This document shows positions 1-12,205 of a DNA stretch of 13,200 bases, piece after piece. The translations under genes were made by a program, and so were the position numbers. The notes below the pieces were generated by a model that worked only from the letters and a program-made list of their open reading frames with translations, did not search any database and was not told where the DNA came from. Source of the stretch: a virus (Duplodnaviria > Heunggongvirae > Uroviricota > Caudoviricetes); IMG/VR virus record IMGVR_UViG_2657245439_000001, one strand, 5' to 3'. The first letter of the stretch is position 1. Each line of letters opens with the position of its first letter.

Positions 1-1399
1 CCTTCAGGCGCTGTTCCGTGCCTTCCCGTTCTGCCTGCCGGTCAGTCAGCCCCCGGCTTTTCGCATCAATGGCGGCCCGTTTTGCCCGTTGCTGCTGTGC
101 GAATTTATCCGCCTGCTGCGCCAGCGCGTTCAGGTGCTCCTGATACGTAACCTTGTCGCCAAGTGCAGCCAGCTGGCGCTTGTACTCCAGCGTCTCGTCT
201 TTATGCGCCAGCAGGGATTTCTCCTGTGCAGACAGCTGGCGACGTTGCGCCGCCTCCTCCAGTACCGCGAACTGATTCTCCGCCTTCCACAAATCCCGGC
301 GCTGCTGGCTGATTTTCTCATTCGCTCCGGCATGCTTCTCCAGCGTCCGGAGTTCTGCCTGAAGCGTCAGAAGGGCAGCATGAGCACTGTCTTCCTGACG
401 ATCGCCCGCAGACACCTTCACGCCGGAGTGCTTCGGCTTTTTCAGCGTCGCTTCATAGTCCTTTTTCGCCGCCATCAGCGTGTTGTAATCTGCCTGCAGG
501 ATTTTCCCGTCCTTCAGTGCCTTGTTCAGTTCTTCCTGACGGGCGGTATATTTCTCCAGCGGCGTCTGCAGGCGTTCGTAAGCCTTCTGCGCCTCTTCGG
601 TATATTTCAGCCGTGATGCCTCAGAGTCGGCCCAGTCCTTTGCTGCCATCTCTCTGGCCTTTTCAAGATCGGCCTGCAACGTGGCGGCTGAAAGCCCAAG
701 TTGCGCATTCGCTCTGTCCTCCCATGCTCCACGGAGATTGGCAAGAAATGCTGAGGTTTTACCGCGCCGGTGGCTTCGGCTCTGATACCACTGCCATTTT
801 TTATCCGCTTCATCAAAAGCCTTTTCAGCTTTGGCGAGCATATCTGCAGAGGAGTCCGGGCGGCCAATATCCAGCACCGCATCCCACATGGATTTGAATG
901 CCTGTGCAGTCTTGTCAGCCCAGGTCTCCAGCGTACCCATGTTATCTTTCAGGCGGCGGGTCTGGTCATCAAACCCTTTCGTTGCGGCCTCGTTCGCCGC
1001 CTGCAACGCCCCGGCCCCATCGCCGGAACGCTGCAACTGAGCAACATACGCAATCTGTTCCGCCGTCACGTTATGGAACTGGCGCGCCATCGCCGTCAAC
1101 CCAGACGTCGGGTCAGTGGTCAGCTTCCCGAAGGCTTCAGCGACCTTGTCCACCTCCACGCCGGATGCAGAGGAGAAACGCGCCACACTCTGGCTGATTG
1201 CCTCAAACTGCTCACCACCACGCACACCGGCATTCACCAGCGCCGTCAGTGACTCGCTGGTCTGGTTAAACGTCAGCCCTGCCGCCTGCCCGGTTCTGGA
1301 CAGGGCCAGCATACGATCTGCCGTCAGTCCCGCCTGATTACCGGAAAGGACCAGCGTTTTGTTGAAATTAGACAGGGTTGAGTCACCCTGATACCAGGC
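1..1399 (-). pseudogene. H: Tail tape measure protein H, portion downstream of the in-frame TAG; frame stays open to the window edge
   Basis: I translated the minus strand codon by codon from 1399 to 2 in the H frame and found no stop codon. The product (e.g. ...KRQLAALGDKVTYQEHLNALAQQADKFAQQQRAKRAAIDAKSRGLTDRQAEREGTEQRLK) is clearly tape-measure-like and continues past position 1. It is separated from the H start only by the TAG at 1400-1402. First in-frame ATG after the stop is at 1312-1310. Confidence 0.8.
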
Positions 1400-1810
1400 C
1401 TACGTCAGCGCACCGGTCGCCACCGCTAGCGAAGTGATACCAACCATCGGCAGGGTGATCGCACCGGCAAGTCCCCTGAACATGGGGATCATCCCGCCAA
1501 AGGCGTCCTTCACCTGACCGCCCTGTTGCAGCAGGATCAGCCACGGACTTTGCCCGCCTGCAAGCTGCGTGGCCACGTCGGTGAACTGCGCAGGCAGCAT
1601 ACGCATGGCAGCTTTATACTGCCCGACGGAAATCCCCGCTTTCTGTGCAGCCAGCGCCTGTCGGTTCATCGACTGCTCAACAACTGCCGCTGTTTTTTTC
1701 GCATCACTTTCCGTACCGGAAAAATGACGCCTGACTCTGGCCATCTGCTCGTCAAATCTGGCCGCATCCAGACTCAAATCAACGACCAGATCGCCTACCG
1801 GTTCAGCCAT
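1400..1810 (-). CDS. H: Tail tape measure protein H, N-terminal 136-codon fragment ending at an in-frame amber TAG
   Basis: ATG at 1810-1808 overlaps the T stop (ATGGCTGA arrangement). The 136-aa product MAEPVGDLVVDLSLDAARFDEQMARVRRHF... matches the lambda gpH N-terminus. TAG at 1402-1400 falls where a sense codon is expected. Confidence 0.85.
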   Translation of the reverse strand: MAEPVGDLVVDLSLDAARFDEQMARVRRHFSGTESDAKKTAAVVEQSMNRQALAAQKAGISVGQYKAAMRMLPAQFTDVATQLAGGQSPWLILLQQGGQVKDAFGGMIPMFRGLAGAITLPMVGITSLAVATGALT

Positions 1811-2321
1811 ACCGGACTCCTCCTGCGATCCCTTCTGATACTGTCATCAGCATTACGTCATCCTCCGTCATGTCCGCCACATCCGGGGAAGCGGGGATAA
1901 CTTCATTCCCGTCAGGGCCAAAACGAACGCCTCCGGCAAGCCCTGCCGCTTTCTGCATCAGCACATCATCTTCAGGCTCTTCGTCAACCTCACGCCGGCT
2001 CAGCAGACTGAAATCCAGCGGATGCATATCCGGATCGCTGAAAAACAGGCTGAGCACGGTGTACGTCAGCCCGGAAAAGTGCATATCCAGCAGAACATCA
2101 TGAAAATAATGGGTACTGTAAAAGCGGTGCCAGTCGGCATACTCCGTGGATGACATCCCGGCAAGCATGGCGCGCCAGTCGGGTCGCCCCATCTCACGCG
2201 CCAGTTTCAGGGCAAAACTCAGACATTCCGGACAGACGTAACACCACGTTTTCAGCCTGAGCAATTGCCTCCGTGGGCCAGGTGGTAAGCACTTCCTGCT
2301 CAATCTGTTTAACGGCTTCAT
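1803..2321 (-). CDS. T: Tail assembly chaperone T-domain ORF (the T part of G-T); homology to gpT begins near 2237, upstream codons are an out-of-frame shadow of G
   Basis: The product ...ALKLAREMGRPDWRAMLAGMSSTEYADWHRFYSTHYFHDVLLDMHFSGLTYTVLSLFFSDPDMHPLDF...GIAGGVRYG matches lambda gpT. Its stop TGA at 1805-1803 overlaps the H start. The frame is +1 relative to G, not the -1 expected for lambdoid G-T. Confidence 0.75.
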   Translation of the reverse strand: MKPLNRLSRKCLPPGPRRQLLRLKTWCYVCPECLSFALKLAREMGRPDWRAMLAGMSSTEYADWHRFYSTHYFHDVLLDMHFSGLTYTVLSLFFSDPDMHPLDFSLLSRREVDEEPEDDVLMQKAAGLAGGVRFGPDGNEVIPASPDVADMTEDDVMLMTVSEGIAGGVRYG

Positions 2322-2544
2322 TCATGGACGGCATCTGCGTCTTCTTCGGATGGTTATGCCACAGGGACATCGCCACCACAAAAGCGCCGGTTCTGATGAC
2401 GTCTTCCACAGTAAACTTCCGGTTGCTGTCGGATTCTGCCTGCTGTTTCATCAGGGCGAGATGCTCAATACGCTGCAGGGCTGACAGTTCAGAAAGCGTG
2501 ACAGTCACGCCGTTATATTCAAATGATTCGGTTTTCAGGAACAT
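2194..2544 (-). CDS. G: Tail assembly chaperone G, C-terminally truncated (116 aa versus about 140 in lambda)
   Basis: ATG at 2544. The first ~110 aa (MFLKTESFEYNGVTVTLSELSALQRIEHLALMK...VLRLSGMSEF) match lambda gpG, followed by 6 unrelated residues (CPETGA) and TGA at 2196-2194. Confidence 0.85.
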   Translation of the reverse strand: MFLKTESFEYNGVTVTLSELSALQRIEHLALMKQQAESDSNRKFTVEDVIRTGAFVVAMSLWHNHPKKTQMPSMNEAVKQIEQEVLTTWPTEAIAQAENVVLRLSGMSEFCPETGA

Positions 2545-2559
2545 CGCTGACTCTCCGGA

Positions 2560-3300
2560 TTAGCTGTCGGTGACGTTGATTTCTGCAACCGCAGCAAACT
2601 CACCATTACCGGATACGACCGGAATGTTGACCTTGCCTGCAGCAACGCCCTTCACGGTGATGGTCATACCACTGACCGACACGGTGGCTTTTGTTTTATC
2701 CGCTGACACCGCACGGAAGCTCTTGTCGGTTGCGCCTTCCGGCTGGAATGCCACGGTCAGCGTGGTGCTCTGCCCTTTCACTACGGAAGCACTGGCTGGC
2801 GTTACCGTCATGCCGGTTGCCGCTGTCACCGTGCTGCGATCTTCTGCCATTGACGGACGGCCCACATTGGTGACCTTCACCGTACGGGTGATCACTTCCT
2901 TCGCCGTCACCGCCTTACCGATACTGCTGACCCAGCCACGGAACACATCGACCGTGCCGTTCGGGAAGCGGATTTTATAGGCACGGGTATCGCCTTCATT
3001 AAACCACGCCAGCAGCGCCTGCTGCCCCTGCTCTCCGGGCATCCACGCCAGCGTGAAGCTGGTATCTCCGGCGGATTTCTGCCCCTGCCCGGTCGCGGCC
3101 CAGTCCGGATCTTCATCATCGAGATAACTGTCGTCATAGGACTCTGCGGTCAGTTCGCCGGGCGTCAGTTCTTTAACTTTTGCCAGACGCGACCAGTCAA
3201 CGTCTGAAAGCGGGTTCGCATAAGGGTCACCGCTCCCCTTATAAACCCACAGAGTGGTTCCGGCACCTTTCACCGGTGCCAGAGGATTTGGTGTTGGCAT
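2560..3300 (-). CDS. V: Major tail tube protein V with C-terminal Ig-like domain
   Basis: ATG at 3300 preceded by a GAGGA RBS. The 246-aa product [36 protein letters not shown]... matches lambda gpV in length and sequence. The track ORF is extended upstream to 3330, but the internal ATG is the conserved start. Confidence 0.93.
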
Positions 3301-3307
3301 ATCGTCC

Positions 3308-3703
3308 TCACATTTCATAGGTAATGACATAAGTCAGATCGGCTGAACTCCACAGGCCCGCATCATCGTCGCGCCGGTAGTCATAGCCACTGGCCACCAT
3401 ACTGGCGATCAAATCTGACAGTGCCGGGATATCGTTCATCACCGGATAAATCCGGGACTCCATCCACGCATCCAGCTCTGAATCCGGTACCTGAGCAGGC
3501 AGGAAAACTTCAATATGCAGCTCCGCCTGCCAGGTATCGCTGTCCAGCTCTTCGCCCGTGTATTCAGCGCCGGTGAGATAAACGGCAACTGCCGGAAAAT
3601 CCGCCTCATCAAAAACAGCGGGGCGACCATCAAAAAGCGTCGCCCCGGTGTCATGCTTCTCCAGTGCATCCAGTACGGCTGCACGGAGTTCAGTATGTTT
3701 CAT
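3308..3703 (-). CDS. U: Tail terminator protein U
   Basis: 131-aa product [36 protein letters not shown]... matches lambda gpU. Its ATG overlaps the Z stop (ATGA). Confidence 0.93.
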
Positions 3704-4233
3704 CGCTTTATCGCAATCCTCAGTTGTTGTTTCAGGGCGTATTCCAGTTCTTTCGGCAAACGTTCACGCCGTATCTGTTCAATATTCTGTTTAAACGCCG
3801 TGGTCAGCGGCACCGCCATCGGGATTTTCACCACATCAATGGGGTAACGGTTTTTCCCGGCCACACGCTGCATGACATGCCAGCGACCATTTTTTAATCG
3901 CTGGATAAATGCCCGCTGATAACGATGCTGACCGGCCCGTAGCGTACTGTTGGGACGACTTCCGGTGATCCGTATCCCCAGTTTGATGACAGGTAAATCA
4001 CCGCGGTTAACAATGATTTTTACGTGCGGATTTTTGACCGTGGCCTTTTTCAGTCTGGCCCTTTCCTTTACCAGTTTTCGCCGCACCTTTGTCTCACGGG
4101 CAACCTGTGACGCCGACTGATTCATTGCCGTTGTGGCCACGCGGTTAATGGCCATTGCGGAGGCACCGGGCACTGCCGTTTTGCTGATACGGCTGAGGTT
4201 TTCAACGGCCTGCTCAAGACCTTTTATGGCCAT
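3700..4233 (-). CDS. Z: Tail completion protein Z, with a divergent and shorter central segment
   Basis: ATG at 4233 with a GGAGGAGG RBS. The N- and C-terminal regions match lambda gpZ (MAIKGLEQAVENLSRISKTAVPGA... and ...KNGRWHVMQRVAGKNRYPIDVVKIPMAVPLTTAFKQNIE...). The product is 177 aa versus 192 as recalled for lambda. Confidence 0.88.
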   Translation of the reverse strand: MAIKGLEQAVENLSRISKTAVPGASAMAINRVATTAMNQSASQVARETKVRRKLVKERARLKKATVKNPHVKIIVNRGDLPVIKLGIRITGSRPNSTLRAGQHRYQRAFIQRLKNGRWHVMQRVAGKNRYPIDVVKIPMAVPLTTAFKQNIEQIRRERLPKELEYALKQQLRIAIKR

Positions 4234-4244
4234 ACCTCCTCCTT

Positions 4245-4598
4245 TCAGCGACGACGGTTAACGGCAGGCGGCACGCCACGCCCAAGCCAGAGATGACAGC
4301 TTCCGCCATCATCCGGTGAAATCCGGTCTATCCAGAAGTTTTCCTCACCGATGGTCAGCGTGTCGCCGCGCCGCAGCTGCCGCACATCATCAGTCCGGAC
4401 AAACAGGGACGGGCAGGAGCCTTCAACACGTACGCCCTGTCCGGCATAGCTGATATTTTCAGGGTCATCAAAAACACCACGTATTACTGCGCCGGACTGC
4501 TCACCGGATGTCATGGTGGCTGACGTTCCCATGTACCCGCGTATCGTTTCATCGGCGCGGGCAATGGCAGCATCGAACAGGTTATCGAAATCAGCCAC
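4245..4598 (-). CDS. FII: Head-tail connector / head completion protein FII (GTG start)
   Basis: 117-aa product (M)ADFDNLFDAAIARADETIRGYMGTSATMTSGEQSGAVIRGVF... matches lambda gpFII. The start codon is GTG at 4598-4596, preceded by GGGAGGCG. Confidence 0.92.
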   Translation of the reverse strand: MADFDNLFDAAIARADETIRGYMGTSATMTSGEQSGAVIRGVFDDPENISYAGQGVRVEGSCPSLFVRTDDVRQLRRGDTLTIGEENFWIDRISPDDGGSCHLWLGRGVPPAVNRRR

Positions 4599-4609
4599 AG
4601 CGCCTCCCG

Positions 4610-5005
4610 TTATTGCATTCTGGCCAGGCCATGTTCTGTCATTTCGGCTGCCACACTGGCAGAAACACGGAACGCCGTTCCCGGCAGCACAAATGCCACA
4701 GCCTCATCCCGCGTGGCGTGAAGTGCATCAGTATGCAGCGTCACCAGTGCCACAACCGTGACCAGATCAGCCGTATCAGTCACGGTACCCGGCTGCGCTG
4801 ACACCACCTCATTTTCATGCCCGGTCAGCGCATTTTCCGGGCTGACAGACGTGTCCTGACCGGCAGCGTCATCCGTGTCATCAAGCTCCTCTTCCAGCTC
4901 TGCCACACGGAGCGCCAGTTCTTCTTTCGTCCCCGTCAGGCTGACATCACGGTTCAGTTGCTCACCCAGCACCTGAAGACGGGAAATCAGTTCATCTTTC
5001 GTCAT
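4610..5005 (-). CDS. FI: DNA packaging accessory protein FI
   Basis: ATG at 5005 preceded by GGAGGAG. The 131-aa product MTKDELISRLQVLGEQLNRDVSLTGTKEELALRVAELEEEL... matches lambda gpFI. The track ORF is extended to 5044; the internal ATG with an RBS is chosen. Confidence 0.9.
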   Translation of the reverse strand: MTKDELISRLQVLGEQLNRDVSLTGTKEELALRVAELEEELDDTDDAAGQDTSVSPENALTGHENEVVSAQPGTVTDTADLVTVVALVTLHTDALHATRDEAVAFVLPGTAFRVSASVAAEMTEHGLARMQ

Positions 5006-5026
5006 GGACTCCTCCACAGAGAGAAA

Positions 5027-5044
5027 ATGGCCCCGAAGGGCCAT
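5027..5044 (-). other. Stem-loop with UUCG tetraloop directly after the E stop and before the FI RBS
   Basis: Minus-strand RNA AUGGCCC-UUCG-GGGCCAU (7-bp perfect stem, UUCG loop) starts 2 nt after the E TAA and is followed by UUUCUCUCU and the GGAGGAG RBS of FI. Confidence 0.5.
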
Positions 5045-5046
5045 GA

Positions 5047-6072
5047 TTACGCCAGTTGTACGGACACGAACGCATCAGGGTCAGCCAGCAGCATCAGCGG
5101 TGCTGACTGAATCATGGTGAACTCACGCGCCGGATCGCCGGTGGTCACCCAGTTTTTCGGGTAGCGGGCAGAGGCGTTAATACCTTCGCGCTGTGCGTCC
5201 GCATCCTGAATGCAGCCATAGGTGCGCAGACCGCGTGCCTGAGTGTTCCCCAGCACCATCGTGTTGTCCGGAAGGAAGTTCTTTTTGACGTCGTTTTCCA
5301 CGTACTGTCCGGAATACACGACGATCGCCGTATCGCCATACATCCCCTTATAGGACACCGCTTCGCCCAGGTCTTTTACCGCTGTCTCCAGCTCGGAATT
5401 AGAGCCGCGACGGGTATCCAGCTTCTCCTTGACGGCTTTGAAGGAACGGAACAGCGCCCAGCCTTTTGGATCGAACACGATGATATTCACCACACCGCTG
5501 GCGTTCAGCGCGTAGGCTTCGATATCGTCGGTCGGGTCATACGTGGACTTGTCACGCTTGCTCCACTCCGTGCCGCCGGACTGCGTGATGTTATTCGCCG
5601 CACTGCGGCCCATATCCACCTCAACCGGATCGAAGGCTTCACCGGTCATGGTGTATTTGCCCTTGAGCACGGCAGAAACGGCCTGCATCTCTTCGACCTG
5701 GGCAATGGCAAGCTCCTCATCGCGCATGTTCTGCAGGATGATGCGACGGCGGCGGTAAGCAGGGTCTGCCAGATTCTGTGGATCTTCATCCGGCAGGCGA
5801 CGCAGGATCATCTGCGGATTCACCTCATGCTTGGGTTTGACATATCCCGGCGTAAATTCAGAGGTGGAGCCGCCACGGGAGCGGATAACCTCACCGGAAA
5901 CAATCGGCGAAACGTACAGCGCCATGTTTACCAGTCCCGGAATTTGTGAGAGATAGACTTTCTCCGTGGTGAAGAGATAGCTCTCACGGAAAAAAAGACG
6001 CAGAAACAGCGGATCAAACTTAAATTTCTGCTCATTTGCCGCCAGCAGCTGGCCGGTTGTGTACATCGACAT
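5047..6072 (-). CDS. E: Major capsid protein E
   Basis: 341-aa product MSMYTTGQLLAANEQKFKFDPLFLRLFFRESY...FVSVQLA matches lambda gpE at the same length. ATG at 6072; the track extension to 6099 is rejected. Confidence 0.95.
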   Translation of the reverse strand: MSMYTTGQLLAANEQKFKFDPLFLRLFFRESYLFTTEKVYLSQIPGLVNMALYVSPIVSGEVIRSRGGSTSEFTPGYVKPKHEVNPQMILRRLPDEDPQNLADPAYRRRRIILQNMRDEELAIAQVEEMQAVSAVLKGKYTMTGEAFDPVEVDMGRSAANNITQSGGTEWSKRDKSTYDPTDDIEAYALNASGVVNIIVFDPKGWALFRSFKAVKEKLDTRRGSNSELETAVKDLGEAVSYKGMYGDTAIVVYSGQYVENDVKKNFLPDNTMVLGNTQARGLRTYGCIQDADAQREGINASARYPKNWVTTGDPAREFTMIQSAPLMLLADPDAFVSVQLA

Positions 6073-6084
6073 AAAAAAATCCCG

Positions 6085-6112
6085 TAAAAAAAGCCGCACA
6101 GGCGGCCTTTAG
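6085..6112 (-). terminator. Intrinsic-terminator-like hairpin in the D-E intergenic region
   Basis: Minus-strand RNA reads AAAGGCCGC-CUGU-GCGGCUUUUUUU: a GC-rich stem of 5-6 bp with a 4-nt loop, followed by a run of seven U. It lies between the D stop (6128) and the E start (6072). Confidence 0.45.
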
Positions 6113-6127
6113 TGATGAAGGGTAAGG

Positions 6128-6460
6128 TTAAACGATGCTGATTGCCGTTCCGGCAAACGCGGTCCGTTTTTTCGTCTCGTCGGTGGCAGCCTCCGGCCAG
6201 AGCACATCCTCATAACGGAACGTGCCTGACTTGTAGAACGTCAGCGTGGTGCTGGTCTGGTCAGCAGCAACCGCTAGGATGCCAACGGCAGCACCGTCGG
6301 TGGTGCCATCCCACGCAACCAGCTTACGGGTGGAGGTATCCGGCATCAGCGGGGTCATTGCAGGCGCTTTCGCACTCAATCCGCCGGGCGCGGTTGCGGT
6401 ATGAGCCGGGTCACTGTTGCCCAGCGGCTGGTAATGGGTAAAGGTTTCTTTGCTCGTCAT
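6128..6460 (-). CDS. D: Capsid decoration protein D
   Basis: 110-aa product [39 protein letters not shown]...[10 protein letters not shown] matches lambda gpD. ATG at 6460; the track ORF starts two codons upstream. Confidence 0.95.
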
Positions 6461-6469
6461 AAACATCCC

Positions 6470-7075
6470 TTACACTGGTGTGTTCAGCAAATCGTTAACG
6501 GCATCAGATGCCGGGTTACCTGCAGCCAGCGGTGCCGGTGCACCCTGCATCAGACGATCCAGCGCAGTGTCACTGCGCGCCTGTGCACTCTGTGGTGCAG
6601 CTGCCAGAATGCGGCGGGCCGTTTCCACGGTCATACCGGGGGTTCCGGCCAGCACACGTGCCTGTTCTTCGCGTCCGTGAGCCTCCTCACAGTTGAGGAT
6701 CCCCATAATGCGACTGTTTTCTGCCGCAACCGCTGCGGTGATCTGCGCGTTCACGTCCGGCTGCGCCGCGCTGGCGTTCTCGCCCTCCGTCGCTGACACC
6801 ACGTCAGTAACGTCAGCCTGCAAAGCAGTGGCTGAAACAGTTGTTGATTGAGTCTCTTTGGTCATTCGCCCTCCTGAGAGACGGGATTTACGTGCATCCA
6901 GTGCATCACGCATGACGGTGATCGTATCGGTGCTGTTAACAAGTTCATCAGCCAGTCCGGCATCAATGGCCTCCTGACCGCTGTACACTGCAGCCTCGGT
7001 ATCCAGAACAGCCTGCACGGACAGGCCGGTATATGCCGACACTTTCTGCGCAAACATCTGGCGGGTTGCATCCAT
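6470..7075 (-). CDS. Nu3: Scaffolding protein Nu3, nested in-frame in the 3' third of C
   Basis: Internal in-frame Met (MDATRQMFAQKVSAYTGLSVQ...) gives a 201-codon C-terminal ORF, matching the known C/Nu3 nested arrangement of lambda. Confidence 0.75.
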   Translation of the reverse strand: MDATRQMFAQKVSAYTGLSVQAVLDTEAAVYSGQEAIDAGLADELVNSTDTITVMRDALDARKSRLSGGRMTKETQSTTVSATALQADVTDVVSATEGENASAAQPDVNAQITAAVAAENSRIMGILNCEEAHGREEQARVLAGTPGMTVETARRILAAAPQSAQARSDTALDRLMQGAPAPLAAGNPASDAVNDLLNTPV

Positions 7076-7769
7076 CCGGGACTGCAGTGTTTCCCGGACG
7101 TCATCCGGAAGATGGCTGTAGGGGTTGCCATCCACCTTATGGCTGCCGCTGTAAATCAGCGTGATTTCCACGCCCTGTTTCTCCAGCGCAGCACCGTAAT
7201 TGCTGTGAGCCATCATGACGCCGATGGAGCCTGTCCGGGCGGTCTGCGTGACCAGACGCCGGGAAGCGGCACTGGCAAGCAACTGACCTGCACTGCAGTT
7301 CATGTCGTTGGCAAGCGCCCATACCGGTTTTATGTCACGCACACGGGCGATGATGTCAGCGCAGTCAAATGCCCCCGCCACCATCCCGCCGGGCGTGTCC
7401 ATATCGAGCAGAATGCCGTCCACCATCGGATCGCTGGCAGCCTGTTGCAGACGGGCGATAATGCCGTTGTAACCGGTCATCCCCGAATACGGCTGCAGCG
7501 CCCGCGTCCGGCTGACCAGCGTGCCGGAAACCGGCAGCACGGCGATGCCGTTCATGACCTGATAACTGCGGGCCTGTCGTGGTCCGTCATCATCACCGGA
7601 TAACGCCAGCGTCGCGGGTGCCTCTCCGGCAGTCAGGCTGTCACCGGACACCGCATCTGTCAGGCGGCTGATCCCAAGCTGGCCTGCAAGCGCACAAAAG
7701 AAAACCCGCGCATAGGCGGGTTCAAGCATCAGCGGCTCATTAAAGGCCATGCTGGCAATATGCGGGAGA

Positions 7770-7789
<20 letters not shown>
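6470..7789 (-). CDS. C: Prohead protease / head maturation protein C (GTG start, overlaps the 3' end of B by 20 nt)
   Basis: 1320 nt, 439 codons: (M)TAELRNLPHIASMAFNEPLMLEPAYARVFF...ASDAVNDLLNTPV. The GTG at 7789-7787 gives the same length and N-terminus as lambda gpC. The track's upstream ATG at 7924 would overlap B by more than 150 nt. Confidence 0.9.
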
Positions 7790-11470
<3,681 letters not shown>

Positions 11471-11496
<26 letters not shown>

Positions 11497-12016
11497 TCAG
11501 CAACCCCGGTATCAGTTCATCCAGCGCGGCTGCTTTGTTCATGGCTTTGATGATATCCCGTTTCAGGAAATCAACATGTCGGTTTTCCAGTTCCGGAAAA
11601 CGCCGCTGCACCGACAGGGGGATCCCGTCGAGAATACTGGCAATTTCACCTGCGATCCGCGACAGCACGAAAGTACAGAATGCGGTTTCCACCACTTCAG
11701 CGGAGTCTCTGGCATTTTTCAGCTCCTGTGCGTCGGCCTGCGCACGCGTAAGTCGATGGCGTTCGTACTCAATAGTCCCTGGCTGGAGATCTGTCTCGCT
11801 GGCCTGCCGCAGTTCTTCAACCTCCCGGCGCAGCTTTTCGTTCTCAATTTCAGCATCCCTTTCGGCATACCATTTTATGACGGCGGCAGAGTCATAAAGC
11901 ACCTCATTACCCTTGCCACCGCCTCGCAGAACGGGCATTCCCTGTTCCTGCCAGTTCTGAATGGTACGGATACTCGCACCGAAAATGTCAGCCAGCTGCT
12001 TTTTGTTGACTTCCAT
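11471..12016 (-). CDS. Nu1: Terminase small subunit Nu1
   Basis: 181-aa product MEVNKKQLADIFGASIRTIQNWQEQGMPVLRGGGKGNEVLYDSAAVIKWYAERDAEIENEKLRREVEELRQA... matches lambda gpNu1. ATG at 12016, immediately downstream of cosB. Confidence 0.95.
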
Positions 12017-12193: not shown

Positions 12194-12205
12194 AGGTCGC
12201 CGCCC
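12194..12205 (-). other. cosN: cosN cohesive-end sequence (minus-strand GGGCGGCGACCT, the 12-nt 5' overhang of the lambda left end)
   Basis: Plus strand 12194-12205 is aggtcgccgccc, the reverse complement of GGGCGGCGACCT. It is followed on the minus strand by CGCGGGTTTTCGCTATTTATGAAAATTTTCCGG, as at the lambda left end, and lies about 190 nt upstream of the Nu1 ATG. Confidence 0.85.

Follow-up and report, generated by a model that had tools for sequence, protein, structure and literature searches.

A premature amber codon in the tape measure gene H of an Escherichia coli lambda-like prophage: probable inherited decay of a tail-defective element

An in-frame TAG interrupts H, the tape measure gene, in the late operon of a lambda-like prophage of Escherichia coli. 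The question raised by this codon is whether it represents an inactivating lesion, a natural gene boundary, a stop that is bypassed in translation, or an artefact. The window, i.e. the whole stretch of 13,200 nt that was analysed, is the entire draft contig JHTH01000118.1 of the E. coli assembly GCA_001266385.1. Its minus strand carries the late operon (packaging, head, tail) in the order Rha-type regulator, cos, Nu1, A, W, B, C, D, E, FI, FII, Z, U, V, G, T and H, with the first 603 codons of H contained. We conclude, with a probability of about 0.9, that H of this defective prophage has been inactivated by an inherited nonsense mutation (Tyr137 TAT to TAG). On this reading it is ordinary decay of a resident virus and involves no new mechanism. 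The coordinates of the features are collected in Table 1.

Table 1. Features of the prophage late operon in the window
Feature	Position	Strand	Remark
Premature amber TAG, H codon 137	1400..1402	-	plus strand CTA; from TAT (Tyr) by one T-to-G transversion
ACG (Thr136) adjoining the amber codon	1403..1405	-	older polymorphism outside the lesion; GCG/Ala in most relatives
N-terminal H fragment, 136 aa, the part that would be translated	1400..1810	-	TMP_2 positions 2-86 of 208 only
Remainder of the H frame, 466 codons, open to the contig edge	2..1399	-	untranslated unless readthrough or restart
First in-frame ATG after the stop, codon 167	1310..1312	-	gene callers start a 692-aa CDS here
T-frame remnant, unreachable from G by -1 frameshift	1803..2222	-	
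Truncated, altered G (tail assembly chaperone), 116 aa vs 137-140	2194..2544	-	
Junction of the 88-nt deletion = retained copy of the 8-nt direct repeat CTGAGTTT	2215..2222	-	
Nu1, A, W, B, C, D, E, FI, FII, Z, U, V (packaging, head, proximal tail), intact	2560..12016	-	tblastn
Lambda cohesive-end 12-mer GGGCGGCGACCT, exact match	12194-12205	-	~180 nt upstream of Nu1

The codons around the stop are GCG CTG ACG TAG GCC TGG TAT CAG GGT, which read A-L-T-stop-A-W-Y-Q-G. The initial annotation had described a frame that opens with ATG at 1810, is broken by TAG at 1402-1400 and stays open for more than 460 codons thereafter. Re-reading reproduces this frame as 136 sense codons, the TAG and 466 further codons, and the 603-codon translation holds exactly one stop. 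An open stretch of 466 codons after the TAG is far beyond chance, since its probability in random sequence is (61/64)^466 or about 2e-10. An intact tape measure protein matches the translation at 99% identity on either side of the stop. The assignment of the gene as H also stands, both by the match to the Pfam family TMP_2 (E = 1e-70) and by the gene order V-G-T-H, which is that of lambda.

At codon 137 the relatives of this gene carry Tyr. TAT is found in lambda, in the phages 2B8, 1H12 and PhiR49_1, in 377323_2f and in the prophage of Z1323PEC0014, as well as in all 35 of the 35 IMG/VR contigs that share the identical downstream 27-mer. Lambda reads A-L-A-Y-A (GCG CTG GCG TAT GCC), in agreement with the Tyr that the initial annotation gave for this site. 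Two bases distinguish the window from these relatives here, GCG to ACG (Ala136Thr) and TAT to TAG. The closest sense allele is that of E. coli A25, which combines ACG with TAT in an intact H of 853 codons and whose 67-mer at the site is identical to that of the window but for T/G at the third position of codon 137. This agrees with the earlier claim of a point nonsense change from TAT. With ACG next to TAT in the intact gene of A25, Thr136 predates the amber. The amber itself arose by a single T-to-G transversion from the ACG TAT precursor allele. A two-hit cluster mutation that produced ACG and TAG together is excluded, as ACG is already present in A25 with TAT.

The allele is rare and restricted to one small lineage. 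A close homologue of H is present in 3,724 of the 5,426 complete E. coli genomes, and the TAG allele is found in none of the 5,426. The 29-mer containing the TAG has no match in the GTDB representative genomes, in IMG/VR or in the JGI metagenomes, and the IMG/VR scan was validated with a 27-mer control derived from the window. By exact-sequence look-up, the exact 136-aa product is found on five contigs, with the E. coli records STH57131.1, STH83577.1 and STL86533.1. The check at the DNA level covered three fetched assemblies besides that of the window: two 5-Mb chromosomal contigs from NCTC-type assemblies (L006 and L007) and one short draft contig (L009). The ACG-TAG DNA is identical in GCA_900450055.1, GCA_900449185.1, GCA_053258235.1 and GCA_001266385.1, the first two being the NCTC assemblies and the last the assembly of the window. 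The three fetched copies all read GCG CTG ACG TAG GCC, and their full H comprises 859 codons with stops only at codon 137 and at the end. Nowhere among the four carriers is there an uninterrupted ORF of about 850-860 codons. With H interrupted at codon 137, the locus is a pseudogene of the lambda gpH-type family and not a functional member.

The carriers differ in haplotype. Upstream of the stop, two synonymous differences are private to the window; L006 and L007 are separated by a tract of about 60 SNPs in A/B, and L009 differs at the 3' end of H. These distinguishable flanks mean that the carriers are not one assembly deposited repeatedly. The H amber is a vertically inherited allele of a small group of E. 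coli strains. All TAG-bearing copies also share an in-frame 3-nt deletion at codon 446 of H (about 473-475 of the window, minus strand); their H has a length of 859 codons, compared to 860 in four intact relatives. Changes in H specific to the TAG lineage comprise one in-frame codon deletion, about 5 substitutions at codon positions 1 and 2 and another 6 at position 3. This set, too small to be informative, shows no obvious excess of non-synonymous changes. Prolonged relaxation of selection is thus not clearly indicated. The amber may be recent, or the lineage-specific differences may be older than the amber.

The remainder of the late operon allows the damage to be delimited. Across the full window, the closest relative among complete genomes is the prophage of E. 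coli Z1323PEC0014 with 98.3% identity, and phage 2B8 is the nearest isolated phage. From Rha through V, each gene gives one full-length, stop-free tblastn alignment to its counterpart in the Z1323PEC0014 prophage. With the genes from Nu1 to V intact, damage in the window is limited to G/T and H. The packaging site cos appears intact, as judged by the cohesive-end match listed in Table 1. Compared to the Z1323PEC0014 prophage, to which it is otherwise 97-100% identical, the window is mosaic: FI (4610-5005) shows 88.6% and G (2215-2544) 81% identity. Between L006 and L007, a dense tract of about 60 SNPs is restricted to A/B (positions 334-3086). The divergence of FI and G and the A/B tract point to recombination among lambdoid prophages. 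L007 and L006 each have a private 1-nt indel, at about 717 in L007, where it splits terminase A into 168 and 490 aa, and at about 14391 in the K/I region of L006, where it truncates K. These two indels could represent further decay or long-read homopolymer errors.

Two further lesions affect the tail genes. In the window, right beside the amber and independent of it, an 88-nt deletion between two copies of CTGAGTTT has removed the last 24 codons of G together with the GGGAAAG slippery site of G/T. Relative to G, T now stands in the +1 frame, which precludes a GT fusion. In lambda, which depends on both G and GT, the latter arises by -1 frameshifting at GGGAAAG (PMC3296357). The window contig alone shows the deletion, with L005, L006 and L007 undeleted. 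L006 and L007 have an intact G/T, but in both of them J is interrupted by a 1,426-nt IS4 with a target duplication of 13 nt. The element lies at the same site in both (17488-18913 in L006, about 17489-18914 in L007); the window ends before J. The junction of IS4 and J is absent from all complete E. coli genomes searched. The two IS4 copies are 100% identical but reverse-complemented, i.e. in opposite orientation, which reflects an inversion in place or else an artefact of assembly. With G/T, and in the sister strains J, also damaged, a suppressor host (supE/supF) alone would not rescue the prophage.

How would the amber act on tail assembly? In lambda, a trimer of gpH is located inside the tail tube, with its C-terminal residues 818-842, a helix, held in the tail tip; together with the chaperones, gpH initiates polymerisation of the tube and sets its length (PMC10721106). 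In the amber allele, translation of H would halt after 136 residues, and less than half of the TMP_2 domain would be made. The fragment would have neither the long helical ruler nor the C-terminal tip anchor. By analogy with lambda, the prophage's own H would then be unable to provide a tail initiator or a tube of set length. A prophage whose H product lacks ruler and anchor cannot be expected to build tails from its own genes. In the window contig, the slippage deletion just upstream has in addition destroyed the G/GT chaperone gene, and in the sister strains the tip gene J is split by IS4. Given intact cos, packaging and head genes, induction would yield filled heads at most. Spread would be predicted only if a co-resident lambdoid prophage supplies tails or gpH. 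Both the loss of tail assembly and the possible rescue in trans are thus modelled on lambda. In genomes with an H homologue, the median number of homologues is two. It is conceivable, but unlikely, that the H-amber prophage persists as a tail-dependent hitch-hiker which packages its own genome and spreads by means of the tails or gpH of co-resident lambdoid prophages, with the amber of several haplotypes tolerated or even favoured.

Could the stop be a natural boundary between two functional proteins, a short N-terminal one and a separately initiated one of 692 aa? Gene callers do give two CDSs of 136 and 692 aa, and two phage records (1H12 and PhiR49_1) list H in two pieces. The structure of the gene speaks against it, and we give such a two-gene tape measure next to no credence. 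With the stop read as Tyr, TMP_2 (PF06791) scores 237.8 bits against a cut-off of 30.2 and covers residues 54-256, while the 136-aa fragment alone scores 104 bits; since the fragment ends at position 86 of the 208 of the model, the stop cuts a conserved domain. The tip-anchoring end, Tape_meas_lam_C, is found in the downstream 692-aa CDS of L006 and L007, where H is followed by M, L, K, I and J; the window contig stops at codon 603. The next in-frame start lies 88 nt past the TAG, and no good Shine-Dalgarno sequence precedes it at the right spacing. Intact relatives, all with Tyr at the site, have H annotated as one CDS of 2,562-2,580 nt. The H region is matched by 1,511 phage records. Among 30 phage homologues, picked at even intervals down to about 27-30% identity, 29 align across the stop site in a single tblastn piece. 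Homologous tape measure genes that end naturally at this position were looked for and none was found: the other short N-terminal fragments of this protein cluster break off at 118, 120, 132, 133, 137, 144, 146, 154 and 161 residues and are labelled partial, i.e. they stop at contig ends. The split of H in the two phage records is due to unrelated 1-nt indels elsewhere in the gene. The initial annotation was therefore right that the stop is not a gene boundary. A sequencing or assembly error, with TAT as the true codon and the G as a base-calling artefact, is somewhat less far-fetched and still highly improbable. The window is a short draft contig that ends inside H, drafts contain errors, and the private indels in A and K of the NCTC-type sister assemblies are possibly errors. 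At codon 137, however, we observe the same substitution, not an indel, in four assemblies from separate projects, and with distinguishable haplotypes around an identical TAG a shared base-calling error is not credible. As for a laboratory origin, amber mutations in lambda H are classical genetic tools, which could suggest a Ham allele or engineered phage DNA. The sequence is not that of lambda, to which the protein is only 93% identical over the first 318 residues. The allele moreover resides on chromosomal contigs of 5 Mb from E. coli isolates, and its surroundings show natural mosaicism as well as an IS4 insertion. We consider this origin practically negligible.

It is harder to dismiss, though still very unlikely, that the lesion is conditional or leaky, so that a host amber suppressor, basal readthrough of UAG or a restart at codon 167 provides enough full-length or nearly full-length H for the gene to be functional. 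Several observations are in line with such a leak: the downstream frame is perfectly kept in all four assemblies, the allele persists in several haplotypes, the substitutions show no non-synonymous skew, and the RNA downstream of the stop can fold. The 73 nt from the TAG (1330-1402 of the window, minus strand) form a nested hairpin of -24.9 kcal/mol with z = -3.0 versus shuffles. This fold is, however, no outlier, as 28% of equal-length windows in H fold as well or better. It is also identical in the relatives with TAT and so did not evolve for the amber stop. A downstream RNA structure as stimulator of readthrough is rejected on these grounds, namely a stability typical for this mRNA and the same fold in the sense alleles. 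No tRNA gene was found in the window or in the 20 kb around H in L006 and L007, and no Rfam family matched. The conservation of the stop codon that programmed readthrough would lead one to expect is not seen, TAG being confined to one allele. None of the 15 other reading frames in the window (14 genes and the T-frame remnant) terminates with TAG, which is unremarkable, since E. coli uses TAG less often than any other stop codon. Basal readthrough of UAG is low in wild-type E. coli. Such a level would have to meet a stoichiometric need, as each tail takes a trimer of H (PMC10721106). Finally, the additional lesions in G/T and J argue that selection on tail function was already lost. The inherited inactivating mutation of H remains our preferred reading.

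The two phage records with a split H deserve a description in their own right. In phage 1H12 (L003), H is given as the CDSs 3001-3234 and 3206-5581, with a 1-nt indel at codon 66, where an extra C follows AAAG. In phage PhiR49_1 (L004), the CDSs are 3001-3300 and 3267-5561, and the indel falls at codon 98, where GGGCGG has lost a base and reads GGG-GG. Should both indels be real and the phages viable, damage to the N-terminus of H may be better tolerated than assumed; otherwise they are sequencing errors. Literature searches returned nothing on the PhiR49 phages and nothing specific on nonsense mutations in tape measure genes.

For annotation, the CDSs of 136 and 692 aa are best joined and marked as a single pseudogene. 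Predictions of inducibility or of gene carriage between strains should treat the prophage as tail-defective. Beyond that, the amber provides a clean, datable marker of the prophage lineage, as its precursor allele is known and lies one T-to-G step away. No new biological question is opened by the H amber.

The locus can be compared to three known systems. Similar to the Ham mutants of lambda, it carries an amber lesion in a gene of the same TMP_2 family, located after V-G-T and about 93% identical in protein over the N-terminal 318 residues, and the expected phenotype is likewise filled heads without tails. Unlike those laboratory mutants, it occurs naturally, in a prophage on the chromosome of wild E. 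coli isolates, and its background is mosaic and non-lambda, with 2B8 and the Z1323PEC0014 prophage as nearest relatives. With phage genes that depend on programmed readthrough or on a suppressor, it shares a UAG that is in frame and precedes a long open stretch. It differs from these in that the stop is conserved in no relative and that neither a suppressor tRNA nor a specific stimulatory element was found nearby, and the evidence points to damage rather than recoding. It also resembles the defective lambdoid prophages of E. coli, for which multiple damage is typical; examples are the Sp prophages of O157 Sakai and the CP-933 series. In O157 Sakai, lambdoid prophages with defects in morphogenesis are the norm and some are still transferred via prophage-prophage interactions (PMC2669165). 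The element described here belongs to another strain lineage and has another set of lesions. It shares with these prophages a lambda-like organisation in which lysis, packaging and head functions are intact while tail genes are disrupted, the accumulation of several lesions of independent origin (a point mutation, a small deletion and an IS insertion) and the possibility of rescue by co-residents.
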